Of a stretch of DNA of 64,000 bases, positions 1 to 7,311 are shown in pieces (the first letter of the stretch is position 1; every line of letters begins with the position of its first letter). Made by a program: the position numbers and the translations under genes. The notes under the pieces are model-generated. The model was not told the DNA's origin. It did no database searches and saw nothing but the letters and a program-made list of their open reading frames with translations. This DNA comes from Escherichia coli (GTDB lineage: Bacteria; Pseudomonadota; Gammaproteobacteria; Enterobacterales; Enterobacteriaceae). Where the stretch lies: the NCBI RefSeq assembly GCF_003018255.1, contig NZ_CP027440.1, one strand, 5' to 3'.

Positions 1-512
1 TGTTTAATCTCCTGGCATTCTTCAGGAATACCCCCTTTTATTTCCCTGCCATAAGCGCCTACTTTAAACACCACGCACAGGGCATCACGGGAGAGCGACG
101 GGGTCCACCAGGAGTCCATGTTAAACATGGAGGGGATTCTCATTACCCCCAGCTTTTCACAGAGCCAGACAAGGAAATCAGGACGCTTTCTTAACTCGCG
201 TTCAGCGGCTTCAATCATTGCGGCAATCGCCGGTCCTTCAGGGCATGACTCATCAGGTCTGGCAATAAAGCACGGTCCGTCCCCGATAAAAGCCACATCA
301 TCGCGCTTACGCCAGCCCGCAGGCAGAGCACCAGAAAAATAAAACTCACTGATTACGTCCATGGCAAACGGCTTTAAGCGCAATCCGGCAGCGCCTGTAT
401 TTTTCAGTAATGCCCGAAGAATACTGTTGCGTAGCGGTAAAACAGTCTGTTGATATTTGGTGAAATATTTATTTGTCTGCACACGGTCTAATTTGAAATA
501 AAAATATGCCAT
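1..512 (-). CDS. hypothetical phage early protein, N-terminal ~170 codons only (3' end beyond window)
   Basis: Hand translation: ATG at 512-510 preceded by AAGGAACAGG Shine-Dalgarno; frame stays open to position 1. Not in the ORF track because it has no stop in the window. No family recognised. Confidence 0.45.
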   Translation of the reverse strand, partial: MAYFYFKLDRVQTNKYFTKYQQTVLPLRNSILRALLKNTGAAGLRLKPFAMDVISEFYFSGALPAGWRKRDDVAFIGDGPCFIARPDESCPEGPAIAAMIEAAERELRKRPDFLVWLCEKLGVMRIPSMFNMDSWWTPSLSRDALCVVFKVGAYGREIKGGIPEECQEIK

Positions 513-609
513 ATATCCTGTTCCTTATTTTCAGTTTACAGGCGCAGGCAGTCCCCTGACGCGAGCGCCATACTTAAAACGATGTGATATTTAAAGATTT
601 AATGCGGTG

Positions 610-1140
610 TTATTTATTCAGTCCGGCGTCCTGTTCAAAAGGCTCGACATAAAAACTTTCAGCGCCTTTATTCACCTTAATACCGGCAATGCCTTTCACT
701 GCATCCGGCTCCGCCAGGACCGCTTCCTTGTTCACTTCCTCTTTCGTGCGGATGAATCGCTCAAGCCCCATACGGCGCAGCATTTCAATCACACCTTCCA
801 CATCACGGCTGACGCTGCATGATGGATTTCCCAGCCGCCATGATACTGTTCCGGTGGTCAGATTGGCTGTTTTGGTTTTGCCGCCGTTCGTCAGCTCATC
901 GCGGTTGGTTTTGCACCAGTCCTGAATCCCCTTAAAAAGCACTTTGATTTCTTTTTTAAGGTTTTCAATCTGCGGCGTATAACGGGCGGTGATTTCTGCC
1001 ACTTCATCATTCATCGCCGTTTCCAGCCGCAGCGCCTCTCGCTGAATATCGCCCAGGGTACGGATATCGCGGCTGACTTCTTCGCGGGTCTGCGGTGCAG
1101 CCTCGGCTGCGGCCTTTAATTTTGTAACACGTTTAGCCAT
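610..1140 (-). CDS. gam: Gam-like host-nuclease inhibitor (Mu Gam family)
   Basis: 176 aa ORF; sequence (LETAMNDEVAEIT...NRDELTNGGKTKTANL...FIRTKEEVNKEA) closely parallels Mu Gam as recalled; AAGGA RBS upstream of ATG at 1140. Confidence 0.85.
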   Translation of the reverse strand: MAKRVTKLKAAAEAAPQTREEVSRDIRTLGDIQREALRLETAMNDEVAEITARYTPQIENLKKEIKVLFKGIQDWCKTNRDELTNGGKTKTANLTTGTVSWRLGNPSCSVSRDVEGVIEMLRRMGLERFIRTKEEVNKEAVLAEPDAVKGIAGIKVNKGAESFYVEPFEQDAGLNK

Positions 1141-1151
1141 TTTGTTTTTCC

Positions 1152-1445
1152 TTATTGCAGTGTGCCTGATGCTTTATGCACGCGGTGGCGTTTAATGATG
1201 GCATCCGCCCCAAAAGCCTGTACAGATGCCTGAAATTCCGCTGAGAGAAACTGAATAATTTCAGGACTGTGATACTGGAGAATACTTGCATAAACGTCAC
1301 AGAGTGACGTCGGCCTGTTATTCGTATCACGTTCTGTTTTTACATCCACACCAATCTTTTCATGCACTTCAACACAGTCATTGCCTGCCGGTTTTTCGTC
1401 ATGCGAAACATGCTTAAATTCAAAAATAACGCGTACTTTGCTCAT
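1152..1445 (-). CDS. hypothetical small protein (paralog A of a tandem pair)
   Basis: ORF track 1152..1472; likely start is the internal ATG at 1445 (MSKVRVIFEFKHV...) with AGGGG RBS; shares N-terminal motif and a C-terminal segment with the adjacent ORF. Confidence 0.5.
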   Translation of the reverse strand: MSKVRVIFEFKHVSHDEKPAGNDCVEVHEKIGVDVKTERDTNNRPTSLCDVYASILQYHSPEIIQFLSAEFQASVQAFGADAIIKRHRVHKASGTLQ

Positions 1446-1449
1446 GGAA

Positions 1450-1722
1450 TTACCCCTGCTGATTAAATTCATTACCTTTAATAACCCCGGAACGCATGCT
1501 CATATCTTTCATGAGCGCACTGGCTTTCATTGCCACAAGTTCAGCAAAGTCTCTGCTTTCCGCGAGCATAACCACCCCAAAAATCATGGCGGGTCCATCA
1601 CCTTTCTGCTTTATCCCGGTTGAACGTATGTCCAGACTTACCCCCATGCGCACTGTTCCATCAGCGTTTTTATGGATAACGTGCTCCTTGTATTCGAAAA
1701 TAATGCGTACGACTTTACTCAT
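1450..1722 (-). CDS. hypothetical small protein (paralog B of a tandem pair)
   Basis: 90 aa ORF starting MSKVVRIIFEYKEHV; GAGGA RBS; stop overlaps start of the next gene (4 bp), consistent with translational coupling in the early operon. Confidence 0.5.
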   Translation of the reverse strand: MSKVVRIIFEYKEHVIHKNADGTVRMGVSLDIRSTGIKQKGDGPAMIFGVVMLAESRDFAELVAMKASALMKDMSMRSGVIKGNEFNQQG

Positions 1723-2000
1723 CCTCTGGTCCTCGTTCTGTTTGGATAACTGACCCGGCGTCTGACCTCACGGCAGAACCGAATCATGGCATTAAAGGCT
1801 TCTTCCTCCGTCACCGCTTCCGGTATCCCCGGAACCAGTAACTGCTCCTGTTCATCACGTCCATGACGCGCCATAACCTCAATCACATGCCGTACCGTGG
1901 CAGGCTTTCCGGCAACTATCGGCAATGCACCTTCCGGCAGGACGTAACCAAACTCAATAAGACCACTCGACCACGCCCATGCAATGAGATTTTTTTTCAC
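1719..2000 (-). CDS. hypothetical small early protein (GTG start)
   Basis: 93 aa ORF in the tightly packed minus-strand operon; first codon is GTG; no recognisable family. Confidence 0.4.
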   Translation of the reverse strand: MKKNLIAWAWSSGLIEFGYVLPEGALPIVAGKPATVRHVIEVMARHGRDEQEQLLVPGIPEAVTEEEAFNAMIRFCREVRRRVSYPNRTRTRG

Positions 2001-2001
2001 C

Positions 2002-2256
2002 TCACACCTCCCAGTAAACCGTGCAGCCGCTGATGCGGGTGGCCTTCACACGGCGGCGCAGGCCGTTGGTCTGTATGGTGATTTCAATTTCACCGGTTCC
2101 CTGCACGTTGCCTACCGGCGGCGTGGTTTTCAGTGCAAAACGTTGCGGATAGCGCTTACTGCGTTCCAGTACCGCACCGGCAAGTTCGGTCAGACGGCGC
2201 GCGCTGTTCAGGGAGTCGAATAAATTCATTTTGTTACCGCAGGATTGCATATTCAT
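2002..2256 (-). CDS. hypothetical small early protein
   Basis: ORF track 2002..2268; ATG at 2256 has a GAGGTG RBS so is the preferred start; no recognisable family. Confidence 0.4.
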   Translation of the reverse strand: MNMQSCGNKMNLFDSLNSARRLTELAGAVLERSKRYPQRFALKTTPPVGNVQGTGEIEITIQTNGLRRRVKATRISGCTVYWEV

Positions 2257-2268
2257 ATAACACCTCAT

Positions 2269-2490
2269 TTAGCTGACTTGTTTCGCACCAACAGAACGGC
2301 ATATTCCGCTGTAAACGTCTGTCGCACCTTCGCGATCAAGTCCGGCAGATATCACCATTCGTGTGCGGTCATTAAATTCAAAAAGAAAATCGCCACATTC
2401 TTTATTTTCGGCCAGTGAAATCACCTTCACGTTATCGAAATTAACCAGGTAAAAGCGTCCGTAAATATCAGGAATATTAAATACCGCCAT
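2269..2490 (-). CDS. small early protein in the position of Mu kil (73-75 aa)
   Basis: ORF 2269..2496 immediately after the B homolog with a GTGA/TGA start-stop overlap; ATG at 2490 has an AGGTG RBS. Kil assignment is by position and size only. Confidence 0.4.
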   Translation of the reverse strand: MAVFNIPDIYGRFYLVNFDNVKVISLAENKECGDFLFEFNDRTRMVISAGLDREGATDVYSGICRSVGAKQVS

Positions 2491-2492
2491 AA

Positions 2493-3425
2493 TCACACCT
2501 GTGAGAGTAATTCAGGGTTGGTATAAACCTCTTTAAAGGCCGCATTAATATGTTTTTCTGTCAGCGCCGCGCCTTCACCGCTGGCGGTGAGCCACGCCTG
2601 GTTAAGCGTATGTGTCAGAACGCGTAACGCTCCCGGCTTTTCAGCGATAGCCTGCATGACGGCCAGCTCGGCCTCACCACTGATCCCCCACGCCCTGGCA
2701 ATGGCCAGCACATCCGCCTTTTTGGCCTTGCGAAGTTGTTTTGTACGGGCAAGACGGCTGAACAGGCGCGATAAATCATCAAAGGCGCGGCGTCCACCTT
2801 TAAACAATCCGCGCGGGTTACCAATAAGCACCATCCCGATCCCCGTGGCGTCCTGAATTGCCCGGAGTTGCTCCAGACCGTCAATACCAAGATGATCCGC
2901 CTCATCCACAATCACCAGTCCACGCGTTCCCATCAGGCGACGGCGGATGGCGCGGGATAATGCCCCTTTGTTCGCGCGGGTGTAATCAATCCCCAGCGCA
3001 TCGGCCAGCTCCAGCAGACACTCCGTGACGCTGGAGTGCGCGGGTGACAGGGTGATCATCCAGGTGTTTGGTTGCTCCTGGCAGTAATTACGGGCAGTGG
3101 CCGTTTTACCCACACCCGGTACGCCCACAATAACGTTAATACAGCCCATCAGACGAACCGCCTGAAACAGTGCGCGCAGCTCCTGGACTGTCTGCGTTTC
3201 CACAAACTGCGGCGGTTCCGGCAGTGCGCTTTGTTTATTCCAGTTCTCATACCAGGAACGCAGGGAAGCAGCCACAGCAGCGTTATCGCCTTTATATTTT
3301 CCCTTACGGAAAGCCGATAATGTGCCGTCGGAAATTCCCGCCTCTCTGGCGATGGCATACTGCGTCAGTACGCCGCCATCAATAAGTTCATCAATGGTCT
3401 TGATTACATCGTTAATATCAGTCAT
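2493..3425 (-). CDS. MuB-like transposition ATPase
   Basis: 310 aa; Walker A GVPGVGKT, and extended similarity to Mu B as recalled (PEPPQFVETQTV, LVIVDEADHL, KPGALR). Confidence 0.9.
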   Translation of the reverse strand: MTDINDVIKTIDELIDGGVLTQYAIAREAGISDGTLSAFRKGKYKGDNAAVAASLRSWYENWNKQSALPEPPQFVETQTVQELRALFQAVRLMGCINVIVGVPGVGKTATARNYCQEQPNTWMITLSPAHSSVTECLLELADALGIDYTRANKGALSRAIRRRLMGTRGLVIVDEADHLGIDGLEQLRAIQDATGIGMVLIGNPRGLFKGGRRAFDDLSRLFSRLARTKQLRKAKKADVLAIARAWGISGEAELAVMQAIAEKPGALRVLTHTLNQAWLTASGEGAALTEKHINAAFKEVYTNPELLSQV

Positions 3426-3496
3426 ATTATTAACCTCTCATTTGATACCTTGTTTAATCAAATAACCTGAGTCGCCGCTCGGGTTATTTTTTTATT

Positions 3497-5587
3497 TCAG
3501 GCCAGCGGGTCATTTTCTTTTAATTTCGCTTCCAGCAACTGCAATCCCCGCTGGAAATTACGCTCGTATTCTTCATCAGGTTCATCGTCAGCGACCGGTT
3601 GCTGAACGGTCACCGTATTACCCACAGGGCGGTATATGTTTTCCAGCCAGGGCTCCTGCGGCTTGTGCTCCAGCACGTTGACAACCTCATCCTCGGCATC
3701 ACGGATTTTTTCCTCTGCGCGTTTACGCATGCCTTTAAGGCGTTGCTGCTGTTTGTAGTATTCCGCGCTAACCGGGAAGGCTTCGCGTTTATTACCGTCC
3801 CATACCGCCTCGCAAATCACGCTGCCATCCAGGCGACGTACGGTAATTCGTTCGGCATCATGAATGTCATAGCTGATAAGCACCTTACGACCATGCTCGT
3901 CACGCAGCTCGGGCGCGTAGTAAATATTATTCAGCCAGCGTATTTCACAGCGTCTTACAGGGCGTTCCACCATCGGCCGGAACATATCCCGCAGCTCAAC
4001 ATCGGACAGCCATTCAATTTCCGTGTCCTCTTCCGCCAGGCGTTTTTTTCTGAACTCCGCCGGGCTGTAATGCTTGCCGTTCGGCTTCACCGGTAATTCA
4101 TCGTGCGGCCGGTTGTTGTACCACTCAACACCGTCACGAATGGCATCAATCAGTTCAGACCAGGACGGTAAATCACGCATCGCTGACTGCTGCCGGGCGT
4201 TCAGCCGTTTGCCCTGTTGCAGGGCAGTAAATGCCGAGCGTAAATCGCGGTTGGTTTTGCGTAACGTCTCGCGATCTGCACCTTTCCCGAAATAGGTGCG
4301 GTATTTACGGGCTATGCGCATCGGTAATGTGCGGTTAAGCCGTTCGATAATGCCTCGTCCCTGCGGATTACCGGCAATCCCGGTCGGGTGATTAATCCCC
4401 AGTCGCGGCAGTATCCCCACAACCTCCTTATCCAGGATGTCGGCGGTTTCCCCGGAGCCGTTATCCGAGTAATACAGAAACGGTTTGCCGTGATGGCGAA
4501 TGCCGTGCTGTATGGCACCGGCTACGGCGAAAACATTTTCAGCCAGGTCAAGGCTCCAGCCCACCACAAAGCGCGTGCCACCGTCGATAACAAAGGTCAC
4601 TTCCGGTGCAAATGGCCGACCGTGAACCGGGTGTGCGCATTTCAGCTTCATGCCGTGACCGTCACCAATCCAGACATAATTCACCGGCATTCTGGACCAG
4701 TCGCGGCGCGTGAATCCCTCAAGCTGGCGGTATTCACTGCCGGTCACCCGGCCTTTTTGTTTCACCACTTCCGGCAGTTTCTTCATTGCGCGGCGAATGG
4801 TGTCATAAGACGGCATGATATCGAGCATATAAGGCTCATCAGCGTGCCGGTGCTGCCATTCAGCGACAAAATCCTCGTAAGCCTCGGTCATTGGTCGGCC
4901 GTTTGACTGGCGATACTGCGCCAGAAATTCGGGCAGCCAGTTAATATCTTCAGCTTTTATTTCCTGGCGCTTACCCGGTGCCAGTAAAAGCAGGCGTTCA
5001 GCGGCGTTCTGCGCCTTGTTAAAGGCCGCAATCCAGCGTTTCAGCGTTATTTCACTCAACGCACGGCTGTTTCCCTTTTTGGCGTTCGCCGTCTCAACCA
5101 TTGCCACAATGCGCTCGTCCAGTTGCGAACGTGCCAGGTTGTCAACGATAAACCGGATAGCTTTCGCACAGCTGAAACCGGGTTGTTGCGCGACTTTCAT
5201 CACTTCGCTGACGATCGCAATTCGTGCATCAGCCACCTGGCGCTGGTTTTCAGTCAGGGCATTAAGGCGTTCAACCATCAGTTGTGGTGATCCGCGATAT
5301 GCCTCCACCGCATCAACCACGGCAGGCGAGCGTCTGGCCTTTGTCACCACCGGAGCCGGTGATTCATCAGCTTTTTGCGTCATCAGTTGAAGGGCATAAC
5401 GTTCACGCAATACTTGTTGCGCGCCAGAAGGCAAACAATCGATATTAAATTCGATTGCTTTTGTCCCCTTACGTTTGCGTAACATGGCTGCATTTCCCGC
5501 AGCTGCTTTTGTGAGTCGATGGCGAATGTTATGTTCCATCATTGGTAAATCAGGAAGACCAACACATTCTTTTGCTGTTACCCACAT
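3497..5587 (-). CDS. MuA-like DDE transposase
   Basis: 696 aa; N-terminus MWVTAKECVGLPDLP parallels Mu A MELWVSPKECANLPGLP; candidate catalytic D-D-E residues in WIGDGHG, YYSDNGSGE and GIIERLN; GGGGGA RBS. Confidence 0.9.
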   Translation of the reverse strand: MWVTAKECVGLPDLPMMEHNIRHRLTKAAAGNAAMLRKRKGTKAIEFNIDCLPSGAQQVLRERYALQLMTQKADESPAPVVTKARRSPAVVDAVEAYRGSPQLMVERLNALTENQRQVADARIAIVSEVMKVAQQPGFSCAKAIRFIVDNLARSQLDERIVAMVETANAKKGNSRALSEITLKRWIAAFNKAQNAAERLLLLAPGKRQEIKAEDINWLPEFLAQYRQSNGRPMTEAYEDFVAEWQHRHADEPYMLDIMPSYDTIRRAMKKLPEVVKQKGRVTGSEYRQLEGFTRRDWSRMPVNYVWIGDGHGMKLKCAHPVHGRPFAPEVTFVIDGGTRFVVGWSLDLAENVFAVAGAIQHGIRHHGKPFLYYSDNGSGETADILDKEVVGILPRLGINHPTGIAGNPQGRGIIERLNRTLPMRIARKYRTYFGKGADRETLRKTNRDLRSAFTALQQGKRLNARQQSAMRDLPSWSELIDAIRDGVEWYNNRPHDELPVKPNGKHYSPAEFRKKRLAEEDTEIEWLSDVELRDMFRPMVERPVRRCEIRWLNNIYYAPELRDEHGRKVLISYDIHDAERITVRRLDGSVICEAVWDGNKREAFPVSAEYYKQQQRLKGMRKRAEEKIRDAEDEVVNVLEHKPQEPWLENIYRPVGNTVTVQQPVADDEPDEEYERNFQRGLQLLEAKLKENDPLA

Positions 5588-5597
5588 ACATCCCCCA

Positions 5598-5864
5598 TCA
5601 AGCCACTTCTCTGGCGTCCACCTGGTATCTGCTGGGCCAGATTACAGCAGGTTCAACCCCTATTTTTTCGGCGATGGCGGCTTCGTATTTACGGCACTGG
5701 CGGTAAAACACATTGCGCATTGATCCGCTTTTTAATCCTAACTCCCTTTCCAGTTCAGGGAGGTCTGTGCCTTTGTTTTCAAGGGCTGCATATACCGCTT
5801 TAGCAGACCAGTCACACCCCTCTCGAACAAACAAATTATTCGATGCTTGTCTGGATACCCTCAT
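5598..5864 (-). CDS. Ner-like DNA-binding regulator
   Basis: 88 aa; C-terminal VIWPSRYQ and overall alignment to Mu Ner as recalled; AGAGGA RBS; first gene of the early operon. Confidence 0.8.
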   Translation of the reverse strand: MRVSRQASNNLFVREGCDWSAKAVYAALENKGTDLPELERELGLKSGSMRNVFYRQCRKYEAAIAEKIGVEPAVIWPSRYQVDAREVA

Positions 5865-6020
5865 TGTGTGATCCTCTCATGTTTACCTGAACCGATAATC
5901 AAAACCGGTTATCGATTTAGGTAAATCATAATCGCAAAATAATTCGATATCAACGGTTTTTTGCGAGCATATCGAAATTAAATGCGATGTCGATAATTTC
6001 TTTGTTTTATAGGGGGTTAT
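5865..6020. promoter_or_regulatory. divergent immunity/early control region (operators and promoters between ner and repressor)
   Basis: 156 bp AT-rich intergenic region between divergent genes with at least five copies of a CGATA/TATCG half-site (e.g. CGATAA at 5893 and 5991, TTATCG at 5909) in direct and inverted orientation. Confidence 0.55.
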
Positions 6021-6632
6021 ATGGATAAGGCAGAAAAAACCGTATCCAGTGCGGAACGGTTTATTGATATGGAAGGAATAAACCGATTTTCAGAACGCTT
6101 AGCTATGGCTATGGGAAACATGACAAACGTCGAACTGGCGACCCTTTGTGGACTATCTGAAGCCACAGTAAGAAATTACAGGAAGGGGAAAAACTTCCCT
6201 CCTTTGGATAAACTGGCCTTAATAGCTAAAGCCTGTAATTGTTCACTCGAATGGTTGGCCACAGGCAAGAACGAAGATGAATGCGGAAAAATCGAAAACA
6301 ATTGCGATTCAGGTTCGGGTATTGATCAGGCGCTTAGCTCTCTAAGCCCCCAAGAGAAGCAATTAATCCTTACATTCATCAGGCGAGAAGGTACTAATAA
6401 CCTTGTCAGGCTGGCAGCAATGAATACATCTACAATCAGCCAGGATGCGGTAGAAAGCATCATTGATGCCTTGCCATTACGTCCCGTACTAAAAAATGCA
6501 ATAAAGATAGGAATGGCGGGAAGTGAAGAAACAGACAAAGAGATTTTGCGCGTTATTGAGAAGTACAACTCGAGCAATAACGCCACCCAGGAATCAGGGG
6601 CAGTGACAGTAAAGAAAAATGTTGTTGGTTAA
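6021..6632 (+). CDS. prophage repressor, cI/XRE-type helix-turn-helix
   Basis: 203 aa; N-terminal HTH (ELATLCGLSEATVRNYRKGKNFPPLDKLALIAKACNCSLEWL); transcribed divergently from ner toward the prophage end as in Mu c; AGGGGG RBS. Not similar to Mu c itself. Confidence 0.7.
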   Translation: MDKAEKTVSSAERFIDMEGINRFSERLAMAMGNMTNVELATLCGLSEATVRNYRKGKNFPPLDKLALIAKACNCSLEWLATGKNEDECGKIENNCDSGSGIDQALSSLSPQEKQLILTFIRREGTNNLVRLAAMNTSTISQDAVESIIDALPLRPVLKNAIKIGMAGSEETDKEILRVIEKYNSSNNATQESGAVTVKKNVVG

Positions 6633-6776
6633 GCGCCATCGCTATCATGAGGTGGTGCTGTAAATACATATAGAGATCATATGACTCATCCCAAGATAAT
6701 CACGCTATTGAATAGTAATTCATGATGATTATCATACTGATTATAGTTAGATCGATTATGTGAGCATTTTGGCAGT

Positions 6777-6810
6777 TTGAAGATGTTTTGAAGATGTTTT
6801 GAAGAAGATT
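6777..6810. repeat. tandem direct repeats (TTGAAGATGTT x2 plus a variant) in attL, candidate internal transposase-binding sites
   Basis: Seen directly: TTGAAGATGTT TTGAAGATGTT TTGAAGAAGATT about 100-135 bp from the inferred end, similar spacing to Mu L2/L3. Confidence 0.45.
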
Positions 6811-6890
6811 TTAAGGGTAAATTAGCAGTATCAAATGTGTCGCCGTTTTTTGATCTTTTGACTATTTGTTGAGCAGTCGGTATCAAAAAG

Positions 6891-6912
6891 AGTTTTCCGT
6901 CCGAAGTATACA
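6891..6912. repeat. terminal transposase-binding site and prophage left end
   Basis: Reverse complement TGTATACTTCGGACGGAAAACT resembles the Mu terminal site (TGTAT...ACGAAAA) and ends in the TG/CA dinucleotide. Confidence 0.5.
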
Positions 6913-6981
6913 TCACCTGTTTTATTTCAGCATCTTACAGGTGATTTCACCTCCTTTCACTAAAACCCTTGTCGGTATCAA

Positions 6982-7311
6982 ATGATTCACCTGGTTACAA
7001 ACGATGGATTGATTGATAACCTGCCACAAGGATGTTGCGTGGAAGTAGCCTGTCTGGTTGATGCTAATGGCATTCAGCCGACCAAAGTCGGTACGTTACC
7101 TTCGCATCTGGCCGCCCTGATGCAAACCAACATCAACGTACAGACGCTGCTGACCGAAGCCATTCTTACGGAAAATCGCGACCGTGTTTACCACGCTGCG
7201 ATGATGGACCCGCATACTGCCGCCGTGCTGGGCATTGATGAAATATATGCTCTTGTTGACGACCTGATTGCCGCCCACGGCGACTGGCTGCCAGGCTGGT
7301 TGCACCGTTAA
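6982..7311 (+). pseudogene. melA: melA 3' fragment (alpha-galactosidase, glycoside hydrolase family 4 C-terminus)
   Basis: 109 aa ORF with GH4 C-terminal motifs (NDGLIDNLP...VEVACLVD...MMDPHTAA); in-frame stop 7 codons upstream at 6961, so the 5' part of the gene is absent. Confidence 0.6.

Follow-up and report, generated by a model that had tools for sequence, protein, structure and literature searches.

The window is the whole stretch of DNA analysed here, 64,000 nucleotides of the Escherichia coli contig NZ_CP027440.1. Its first 6999 nucleotides hold the early end of an Sp18-type Mu-like prophage, in which the gene order is repressor (on the plus strand), ner, A, B, five small ORFs, gam and finally the gene under study, which is cut by the edge of the window (hereafter the edge gene, encoding the edge protein). 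An annotated twin of this locus, L001, lies in E. coli O157:H7 NZ_CP038309.1. The features needed for the description are the following.

1..6999, minus strand: early (left) end of the Sp18-type Mu-like prophage (ORF list, annotated twin locus, alignment limits)
1..512, minus strand: early gene, its first 170 codons and 2 nt of the next (translation and 100% identical annotated genomes)
521..526, minus strand: ribosome-binding site AAGGAA (read from the sequence; 8 nt spacing to the ATG at 512)
541..569, minus strand: GC-rich hairpin (GGCGC...GCGCC) in the leader (alignment; common to Mu and SfMu)
610..1140, minus strand: gam, host-nuclease inhibitor Gam (Pfam Phage_Mu_Gam, E 1.5e-41; PHROG 491; RefSeq annotation)
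5598-5864, minus strand: ner, in the early operon (ORF list, twin locus)
6021-6632, plus strand: HTH repressor (ORF list, twin locus)
L001:7768-8283: Gp12 homologue, the gene after the gp11-like gene, outside the window

Beyond the edge gene, the twin locus continues with a homologue of Mu gp11 (Gp11_C, E 8e-40) and then the Gp12 homologue, followed further on by a 183-aa HTH protein (D5-like), several small ORFs, GemA, Mor and lysis genes. At the other end, the alignment of the window to L001 stops at 6999, and the match to the host begins at 7000 in melA. The left end of the prophage (TGTAACCAGGTGAATC... on the minus strand) interrupts this host gene (alpha-galactosidase), with yjdF next, and a search of 5426 complete E. 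coli genomes found the 6999/7000 junction in none of them. The junction is consistent with random Mu-type transposition and predicts an inactivated melA and a melibiose-negative host. Two otherwise similar prophages, L051 and L052, encode a MuA 93% identical to that of the window, a Ner that is just 33% identical and a different repressor gene, which points to an immunity module exchanged between them and the window prophage, giving heteroimmune variants. The small ORFs between MuB and gam (2002-2496 and 1152-2000) show 70-95% identity among close relatives, and one of them is absent in prophage L050; because these small ORFs vary too, the whole stretch from B to gp11 appears to act as a variable accessory region.

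A minus-strand ATG is located at 512-510, and reading from 512 to 1 yields 170 sense codons uninterrupted by a stop. The original prediction had named a minus-strand ATG at 512, a good ribosome-binding site and about 170 open codons, and all three elements were recovered, the site being AAGGAA. The chance of an open run of 170 codons is approximately (61/64)^170, or about 3e-4 by our own arithmetic, and the remaining frames of 1-512 hold ORFs of 74 and 44 aa at most in the mechanical ORF list. The frame itself is missing from that list because it runs off the window, in agreement with the earlier remark that a complete-ORF track misses it. The start codon is backed by the RefSeq call and by an N-terminus, M..YFK, that is found family-wide. 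A purine tract (AGGA or GAGGA) is kept at the position of the ribosome-binding site in Mu, SfMu and other Mu-like loci, AAGGAA itself being variable.

Positions 1-1200 of the window match over a dozen complete E. coli genomes at 100% identity, and a close copy of this segment is present in 231 of 5426 complete E. coli genomes. In NZ_CP038309.1 the same frame is an annotated CDS of 180 aa (L001:6689-7231), and WP_000323221.1 ("hypothetical protein") is identical to the window protein over codons 1-170. Truncation by the window edge, a further part of the original prediction, is real, the window ending inside codon 171, and was overstated: the sole part absent is HSEYVALTEE plus the stop, merely 10 of the 180 codons. 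Extension to the left, which had been proposed for obtaining the full ORF and for exposing a possible frameshift, yielded an intact ORF of 180 codons, free of frameshifts, in the identical genomes. The frame at 1-512 is a genuine protein-coding gene, encoding a protein of 180 aa, and it falls within the semi-essential early region of the prophage.

The leader downstream of gam is 97 nt long (513-609, minus strand). In Mu, gam (Mup10) is followed by a 98-nt gap and then by gp11; the window prophage and SfMu have the equivalent gap and leader, but the edge gene or its SfMu counterpart comes next instead of gp11, and the gp11 homologue begins 4 nt past the stop of the edge gene. Because the shared leader precedes the edge gene here and gp11 in Mu, the edge gene looks like a cassette placed exactly between the shared leader and gp11. 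Between gam (or a DUF3164 gene) and gp11, the number of copies is 0 in Mu, 1 in SfMu as well as in the O157 prophage, and 2 in the Mu-like viral contig L042. In every Mu-like locus recovered from IMG/VR and assemblies, a gene of this type lies directly before the gp11-like gene. On its upstream side stands Gam, except in five loci, where a DUF3164 protein apparently takes that place.

The DNA of the leader is conserved across the window prophage, SfMu, Mu and one more distant Mu-like locus, irrespective of the gene that follows. For the hairpin at 541-569 RNAalifold predicts 10 pairs, one of which shows a compensatory change (CG->UA), and its single-sequence folding z-score is just -0.5. It was left uncalled by the terminator-consensus scan, and Rfam gave zero matches on the prophage part of the window, hairpin included. 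The tandem genes of the DUF5420 family in L042 (L042:5001-5549 and L042:5525-6130) stand ahead of the gp11-like gene; one of them is nearer to the window protein, and its partner belongs to the classical DUF5420 type (PF17457, E 1.9e-13). A Gam homologue was not found in L042, L044, L045, L046 or L048, and in the two of these five that were checked (L042 and L044) a 212-aa DUF3164 protein (PHROG 846) fills the Gam slot, at about 4273-4911 in L044.

A simple consensus scan of the minus strand of 1-1300 returned no sigma-70-like promoter and no intrinsic-terminator-like site, and for this reason the edge gene most simply belongs to the early operon, in which it would be co-transcribed with gam. 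Both the description as an extra early gene downstream of gam and that as an uncharacterised candidate are borne out: the gene is genuine and still uncharacterised, lies on the same strand as gam and shares the conserved leader downstream of it.

The edge protein had been described as having no recognisable family. This holds at the level of the Pfam models, since hmmscan of the 180-aa protein returned no family even at E <= 1, so that the PF17457 threshold was not reached; scans with NCBIfam and PADLOC likewise matched nothing. The description fails on more sensitive comparison. The protein matches PHROG 2260 at E 1.1e-74, with residues 1-180 on profile positions 3-192 of 192, and is related to SfMu ORF11, which also fails the Pfam PF17457 model. 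That model is matched by 23 of 31 aligned relatives (best E 9.3e-28), the edge protein itself not being among those that match. With hhalign, the profile of its close relatives aligned to a set of distant relatives with a probability of 99.9% (E 2.5e-31, 176 aligned columns, full-length and colinear), this set being drawn from the 31-member alignment with its 23 PF17457 matches, the members that carry the matches being unrecorded. Because relatives match PF17457 and the profiles align at 99.9%, the edge protein is evidently a divergent member of DUF5420 / PHROG 2260 that is missed by the Pfam model.

Motifs common to the edge protein and DUF5420 are the N-terminal YFK, P.F..W and the C-terminal EIK[KH]SE[FY][IV]ALTEE. 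The DUF5420 motif set that was tested consisted of YFK, the basic loop PDRRYKEGK, P.FS.W, S.AG and the C-terminal EIKKSEFIALTEE; the edge protein keeps YFK, P.F..W and the C-terminal motif, with the loop replaced by PDESCPEGP and S.AG by SRDA. A tblastn search against phage genomes recovered SfMu ORF11 along with three Mu-like phages of Yersinia. Among 5.8 billion proteins, a word-indexed search gave only 14 relatives (one protein cluster having 2247 member sequences), and an exhaustive profile search of 1.84 billion representatives gave 33 at E <= 1e-3, nearly all of them 180-210 aa long. With 33 representatives among 1.84 billion, the DUF5420-type family is small. A lack of conserved homologues in related prophages had been named as grounds for dismissing the gene; the homologues are conserved there. 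Literature searches for DUF5420, PF17457, phrog_2260 or these protein accessions found none.

An AlphaFold2 model built from the 31-sequence alignment reached a pLDDT of 95.5 and a pTM of 0.86, with the element order b-a-a-b-b-b-b-a-a-b-b-b-a. Foldseek against the PDB gave nothing under E 0.5, and sequence profiles gave no credible match to the PDB. MutS fragments were rejected as structural relatives (best E 0.5, TM 0.19, Foldseek against the PDB). A search of BFVD returned uncharacterised phage proteins only, of similar size and with a TM of about 0.7. The predicted fold is therefore one for which these searches found no solved relative, and the model offers no functional lead. The protein has a pI of 7.58, with 23 acidic and 24 basic residues, a GRAVY of -0.15 and no membrane or signal features evident in its sequence; it is a soluble, near-neutral alpha/beta protein. 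A DNA-mimic anti-restriction protein of the Ocr/ArdA type was considered and rejected, as the protein, at this pI, is not acidic. In the alignments, conservation is concentrated in residues 84-125 and 166-180, with variation elsewhere; the positions that are invariant across the family are mostly Gly or aromatic, and a conserved catalytic constellation is absent.

Compared with three close E. coli prophages, the edge protein is 65-70% identical in amino acids (dN 0.18-0.21, dN/dS 0.43-0.61), against 95-98% for Gam (dN 0.01-0.03, dN/dS 0.05-0.11) and 93-95% for the gp11-like protein (dN 0.03-0.04, dN/dS 0.24-0.25). Its dN exceeds that of every other early gene for which each of the three prophages has a close homologue, ner being excluded from this ranking because the immunity module of L051 and L052 is a different allele, and its dN/dS is the highest among the larger early genes. 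The ratios still point to purifying selection. Its dS is somewhat raised (0.31-0.42), which indicates that allele swapping contributes. Length is conserved at 180-184 aa among relatives that are 30-40% identical, and the C-terminal motif is invariant.

The gene is absent from Mu, single in SfMu, the Yersinia Mu-like phages and the O157 prophages, and present as a tandem pair in L042. Outside Mu-like phages, DUF5420 genes occupy the early regions of unrelated phages, in one context after a CII-like activator in a lambdoid-type arrangement, and in others after a beta-clamp-like/RusA-like gene or near a D5 primase and a methylase. No conserved upstream or downstream partner was found across these unrelated phages, and because the contexts outside Mu-like phages have no such partner the gene appears to be autonomous. 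Its role would be optional and accessory, outside the core machinery of transposition, and, since Mu does without it, it is presumably dispensable for the core cycle. Of the operational marks of an accessory gene used by Silas et al., variable presence between conserved flanks and rapid diversification compared with the neighbours were found; for a third, dispensability combined with an action on host defences or competitors, the absence from Mu may speak for dispensability, and PADLOC gave no hit.

A link to Mu Gp12 was also found. Gp12 proteins open with MFFK and close with EILSDEF.AA, which resembles the termini of DUF5420. In 4 of 4 combinations, hhalign of DUF5420 alignments against Gp12 alignments gave full-length colinear matches (153-156 columns, E 3.2e-5 to 1.5e-3, probability 16-73%), whereas the controls (reversed sequences; gp11, Gam and the 183-aa protein) gave short matches only, with E at least 0.14 and a probability of at most 0.4%. 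The profile of the edge protein's own close relatives, taken alone, gave a non-significant E of 0.11 against Gp12, the edge protein did not match Pfam PF26885, and direct BLASTP of it against Mu gp11 and gp12 was not significant. The AlphaFold model of the Gp12 homologue is of moderate confidence (pLDDT 73.6), and at that confidence its predicted element order equals that of the edge protein: strand, helices, strand pair, low-confidence middle, two helices, strand pair, strand, C-terminal helix. On these profile alignments and models, DUF5420 is a probable, not a proven, distant paralogue of Mu Gp12.

If the link is true, the window prophage has two distant paralogues flanking gp11, and Mu retains gp12 alone. 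A far-reaching extension, which we consider improbable, would make DUF5420 and Gp12 one superfamily with a fold unseen in solved structures and a new class of early counter-defence or host-takeover proteins, whose paralogues flanking gp11 (the edge gene with gp12; the tandem genes of L042) would have diversified for different targets. One 212-aa database protein combines the domains Mor (PF08765) and Gp12 (PF26885); since the genes gp12 and mor sit a few kb apart on the same strand, it may have arisen through an in-frame deletion that fused the two, as opposed to being a designed architecture. A literature search for Mu Mup11 and Mup12 by name found none, the name matches being mouse urinary proteins.

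The preferred reading of the edge protein, to which a probability of roughly 40% is given, is that of a stoichiometric, non-enzymatic binder of a protein of the host, of a defence system or of a rival element. The gene would be read from the early promoter along with ner-A-B-kil-gam, as its position suggests. Because of this position in the early operon, the protein would be made only after infection or induction and not in the lysogen, and it would bind its partner early in lytic growth. It would act stoichiometrically and not as an enzyme, because the invariant residues are mostly Gly or aromatic, the catalytic constellation is absent and the basic loop has given way to another sequence. Contact with the partner would be made through the conserved core, composed of the helices at 92-121 and the invariant C-terminal strand-helix EIKHSEYVALTEE, and the fast-changing rest of the protein would track variation in the bound partner. 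A precedent is Mup07/gnarl2, another gene of the Mu early block, which a screen marks as an accessory gene acting on the host (bioRxiv 10.1101/2023.04.06.535777). Several points tell against this binder. Scans with Pfam, NCBIfam and PADLOC matched nothing, the structure searches found no solved structure resembling the model, and the protein, not being acidic, is no DNA mimic. Fast evolution with a dN/dS below 1 could equally fit relaxed constraint or a swapped divergent allele, and the strict adjacency to gp11 in every Mu-like locus would also fit a role tied to gp11 and gp12.

The latter point leads to the next reading, that of a helper of Mu-type replication or transposition, or of the handling of DNA ends ('arm'-like), acting with gp11 and gp12 or with Gam, which is possible though doubtful. 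Non-essential early functions of Mu that stimulate replication map to this region. The constant place directly upstream of the gp11-like gene at a gap of 4 nt in Mu-like loci agrees with such a helper, as do the probable distant paralogy to Gp12, which is encoded just after gp11, and the neighbours of relatives in other phages (a beta-clamp-like/RusA-like gene, a D5 primase with a methylase, a CII-like regulator). However, Mu has gp11 and gp12 without the edge gene, relatives outside Mu-like phages have no gp11, gp12 or Gam as partner, and the edge gene evolves much faster than gp11, gp12 and gam. In addition, the basic loop of classical DUF5420, which might contact nucleic acid, is lost in the edge protein.

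A function directed at rivals, in which a protein made in lytic growth would block a competing phage or mobile element instead of host defence, is unlikely. Optional presence, tandem duplication and rapid divergence apply to it as much as to the binder, and, according to the accessory-gene screen, characterised accessory genes antagonise other phages too (bioRxiv 10.1101/2023.04.06.535777). The usual setting for exclusion is the lysogen, however, which a repressed early operon would not protect; the protein, with no membrane or signal features evident, is near-neutral and mildly hydrophilic (pI 7.6, GRAVY -0.15), and PADLOC gives no match.

Still less likely is a small regulatory protein that contacts DNA or RNA polymerase to adjust transcription in the early or middle phase. 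Its neighbours do include regulators (the D5-like HTH protein of 183 aa, GemA and Mor), and in lambdoid-like contexts the gene follows a CII-like activator, but searches of Pfam, PHROG and NCBIfam detected no HTH or other DNA-binding family in the protein, which has a near-neutral charge and a model unlike that of any regulator in the structure searches. An ORF in decay or a spurious one, without function, to which the top dN/dS among the larger early genes might point, is effectively refuted by the conservation data, that is, by the intact frame, the 180-184 aa kept across relatives 30-40% identical, a dN/dS clearly below 1, the very confident fold prediction (pLDDT 95.5) with the invariant C-terminal motif, and the 2247 member sequences of one protein cluster. 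The four other readings, from binder to regulator, are inseparable by sequence tools alone.

On its own the finding is of minor weight, as hundreds of E. coli genomes already list the ORF as a hypothetical protein and its family is named, the divergent member being what is new. A modest value is added by the family assignment missed by Pfam, by the probable link to Gp12, and by the recognition of the fastest-diverging optional early gene, with a confidently predicted fold for which the searches found no solved relative. The gene is a reasonable and cheap candidate for accessory-gene or anti-defence screens, and SfMu, which was isolated as an infective phage, carries a homologue.

Among known systems, the genes of the Mup07/gnarl2 type are comparable in kind. 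Mup07/gnarl2, a gene of the Mu early block, scored in a screen as an accessory gene that modifies the host, and the main text of Silas et al. mentions neither SfMu nor DUF5420 (bioRxiv 10.1101/2023.04.06.535777). Such accessory genes are, like the edge gene, small, optional and fast-diverging, and lie between conserved flanks in the Mu early block; they differ in having no sequence relationship to it, and Mup07/gnarl2 differs in its published phenotype. Mu Gp12 (PF26885, Mup12/E13) is, like the edge protein, of similar size (171-176 aa) and encoded in the early block, and the two have in common the N-terminal FFK/YFK, a PR/PD loop and a C-terminal EI..[SD]EF helix. DUF5420 (PF17457) / PHROG 2260, with proteins of approximately 180-210 aa, is matched by the edge protein over its full length in a colinear profile alignment; the edge protein differs in the loss of the family's basic loop and in scoring too low for the Pfam model. 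Another close counterpart is SfMu ORF11 / gp11 (YP_009152197.1), which according to the SfMu paper has no homologue in Mu or D108 (PMC4406740), is labelled DUF5420 in RefSeq and is uncharacterised too. It has 184 aa, compared with 180 for the edge protein, and differs from it in 60% of residues, the two being 40% identical end to end (E 1e-43) with the common C-terminus IKHSE[FY]VALTEE. Like the edge gene, it occupies the slot between gam and the gene for a Gp11_C protein, and the Yersinia Mu-like phages vB_YpM_3, 23 and Tongde carry homologues of both, one copy each.
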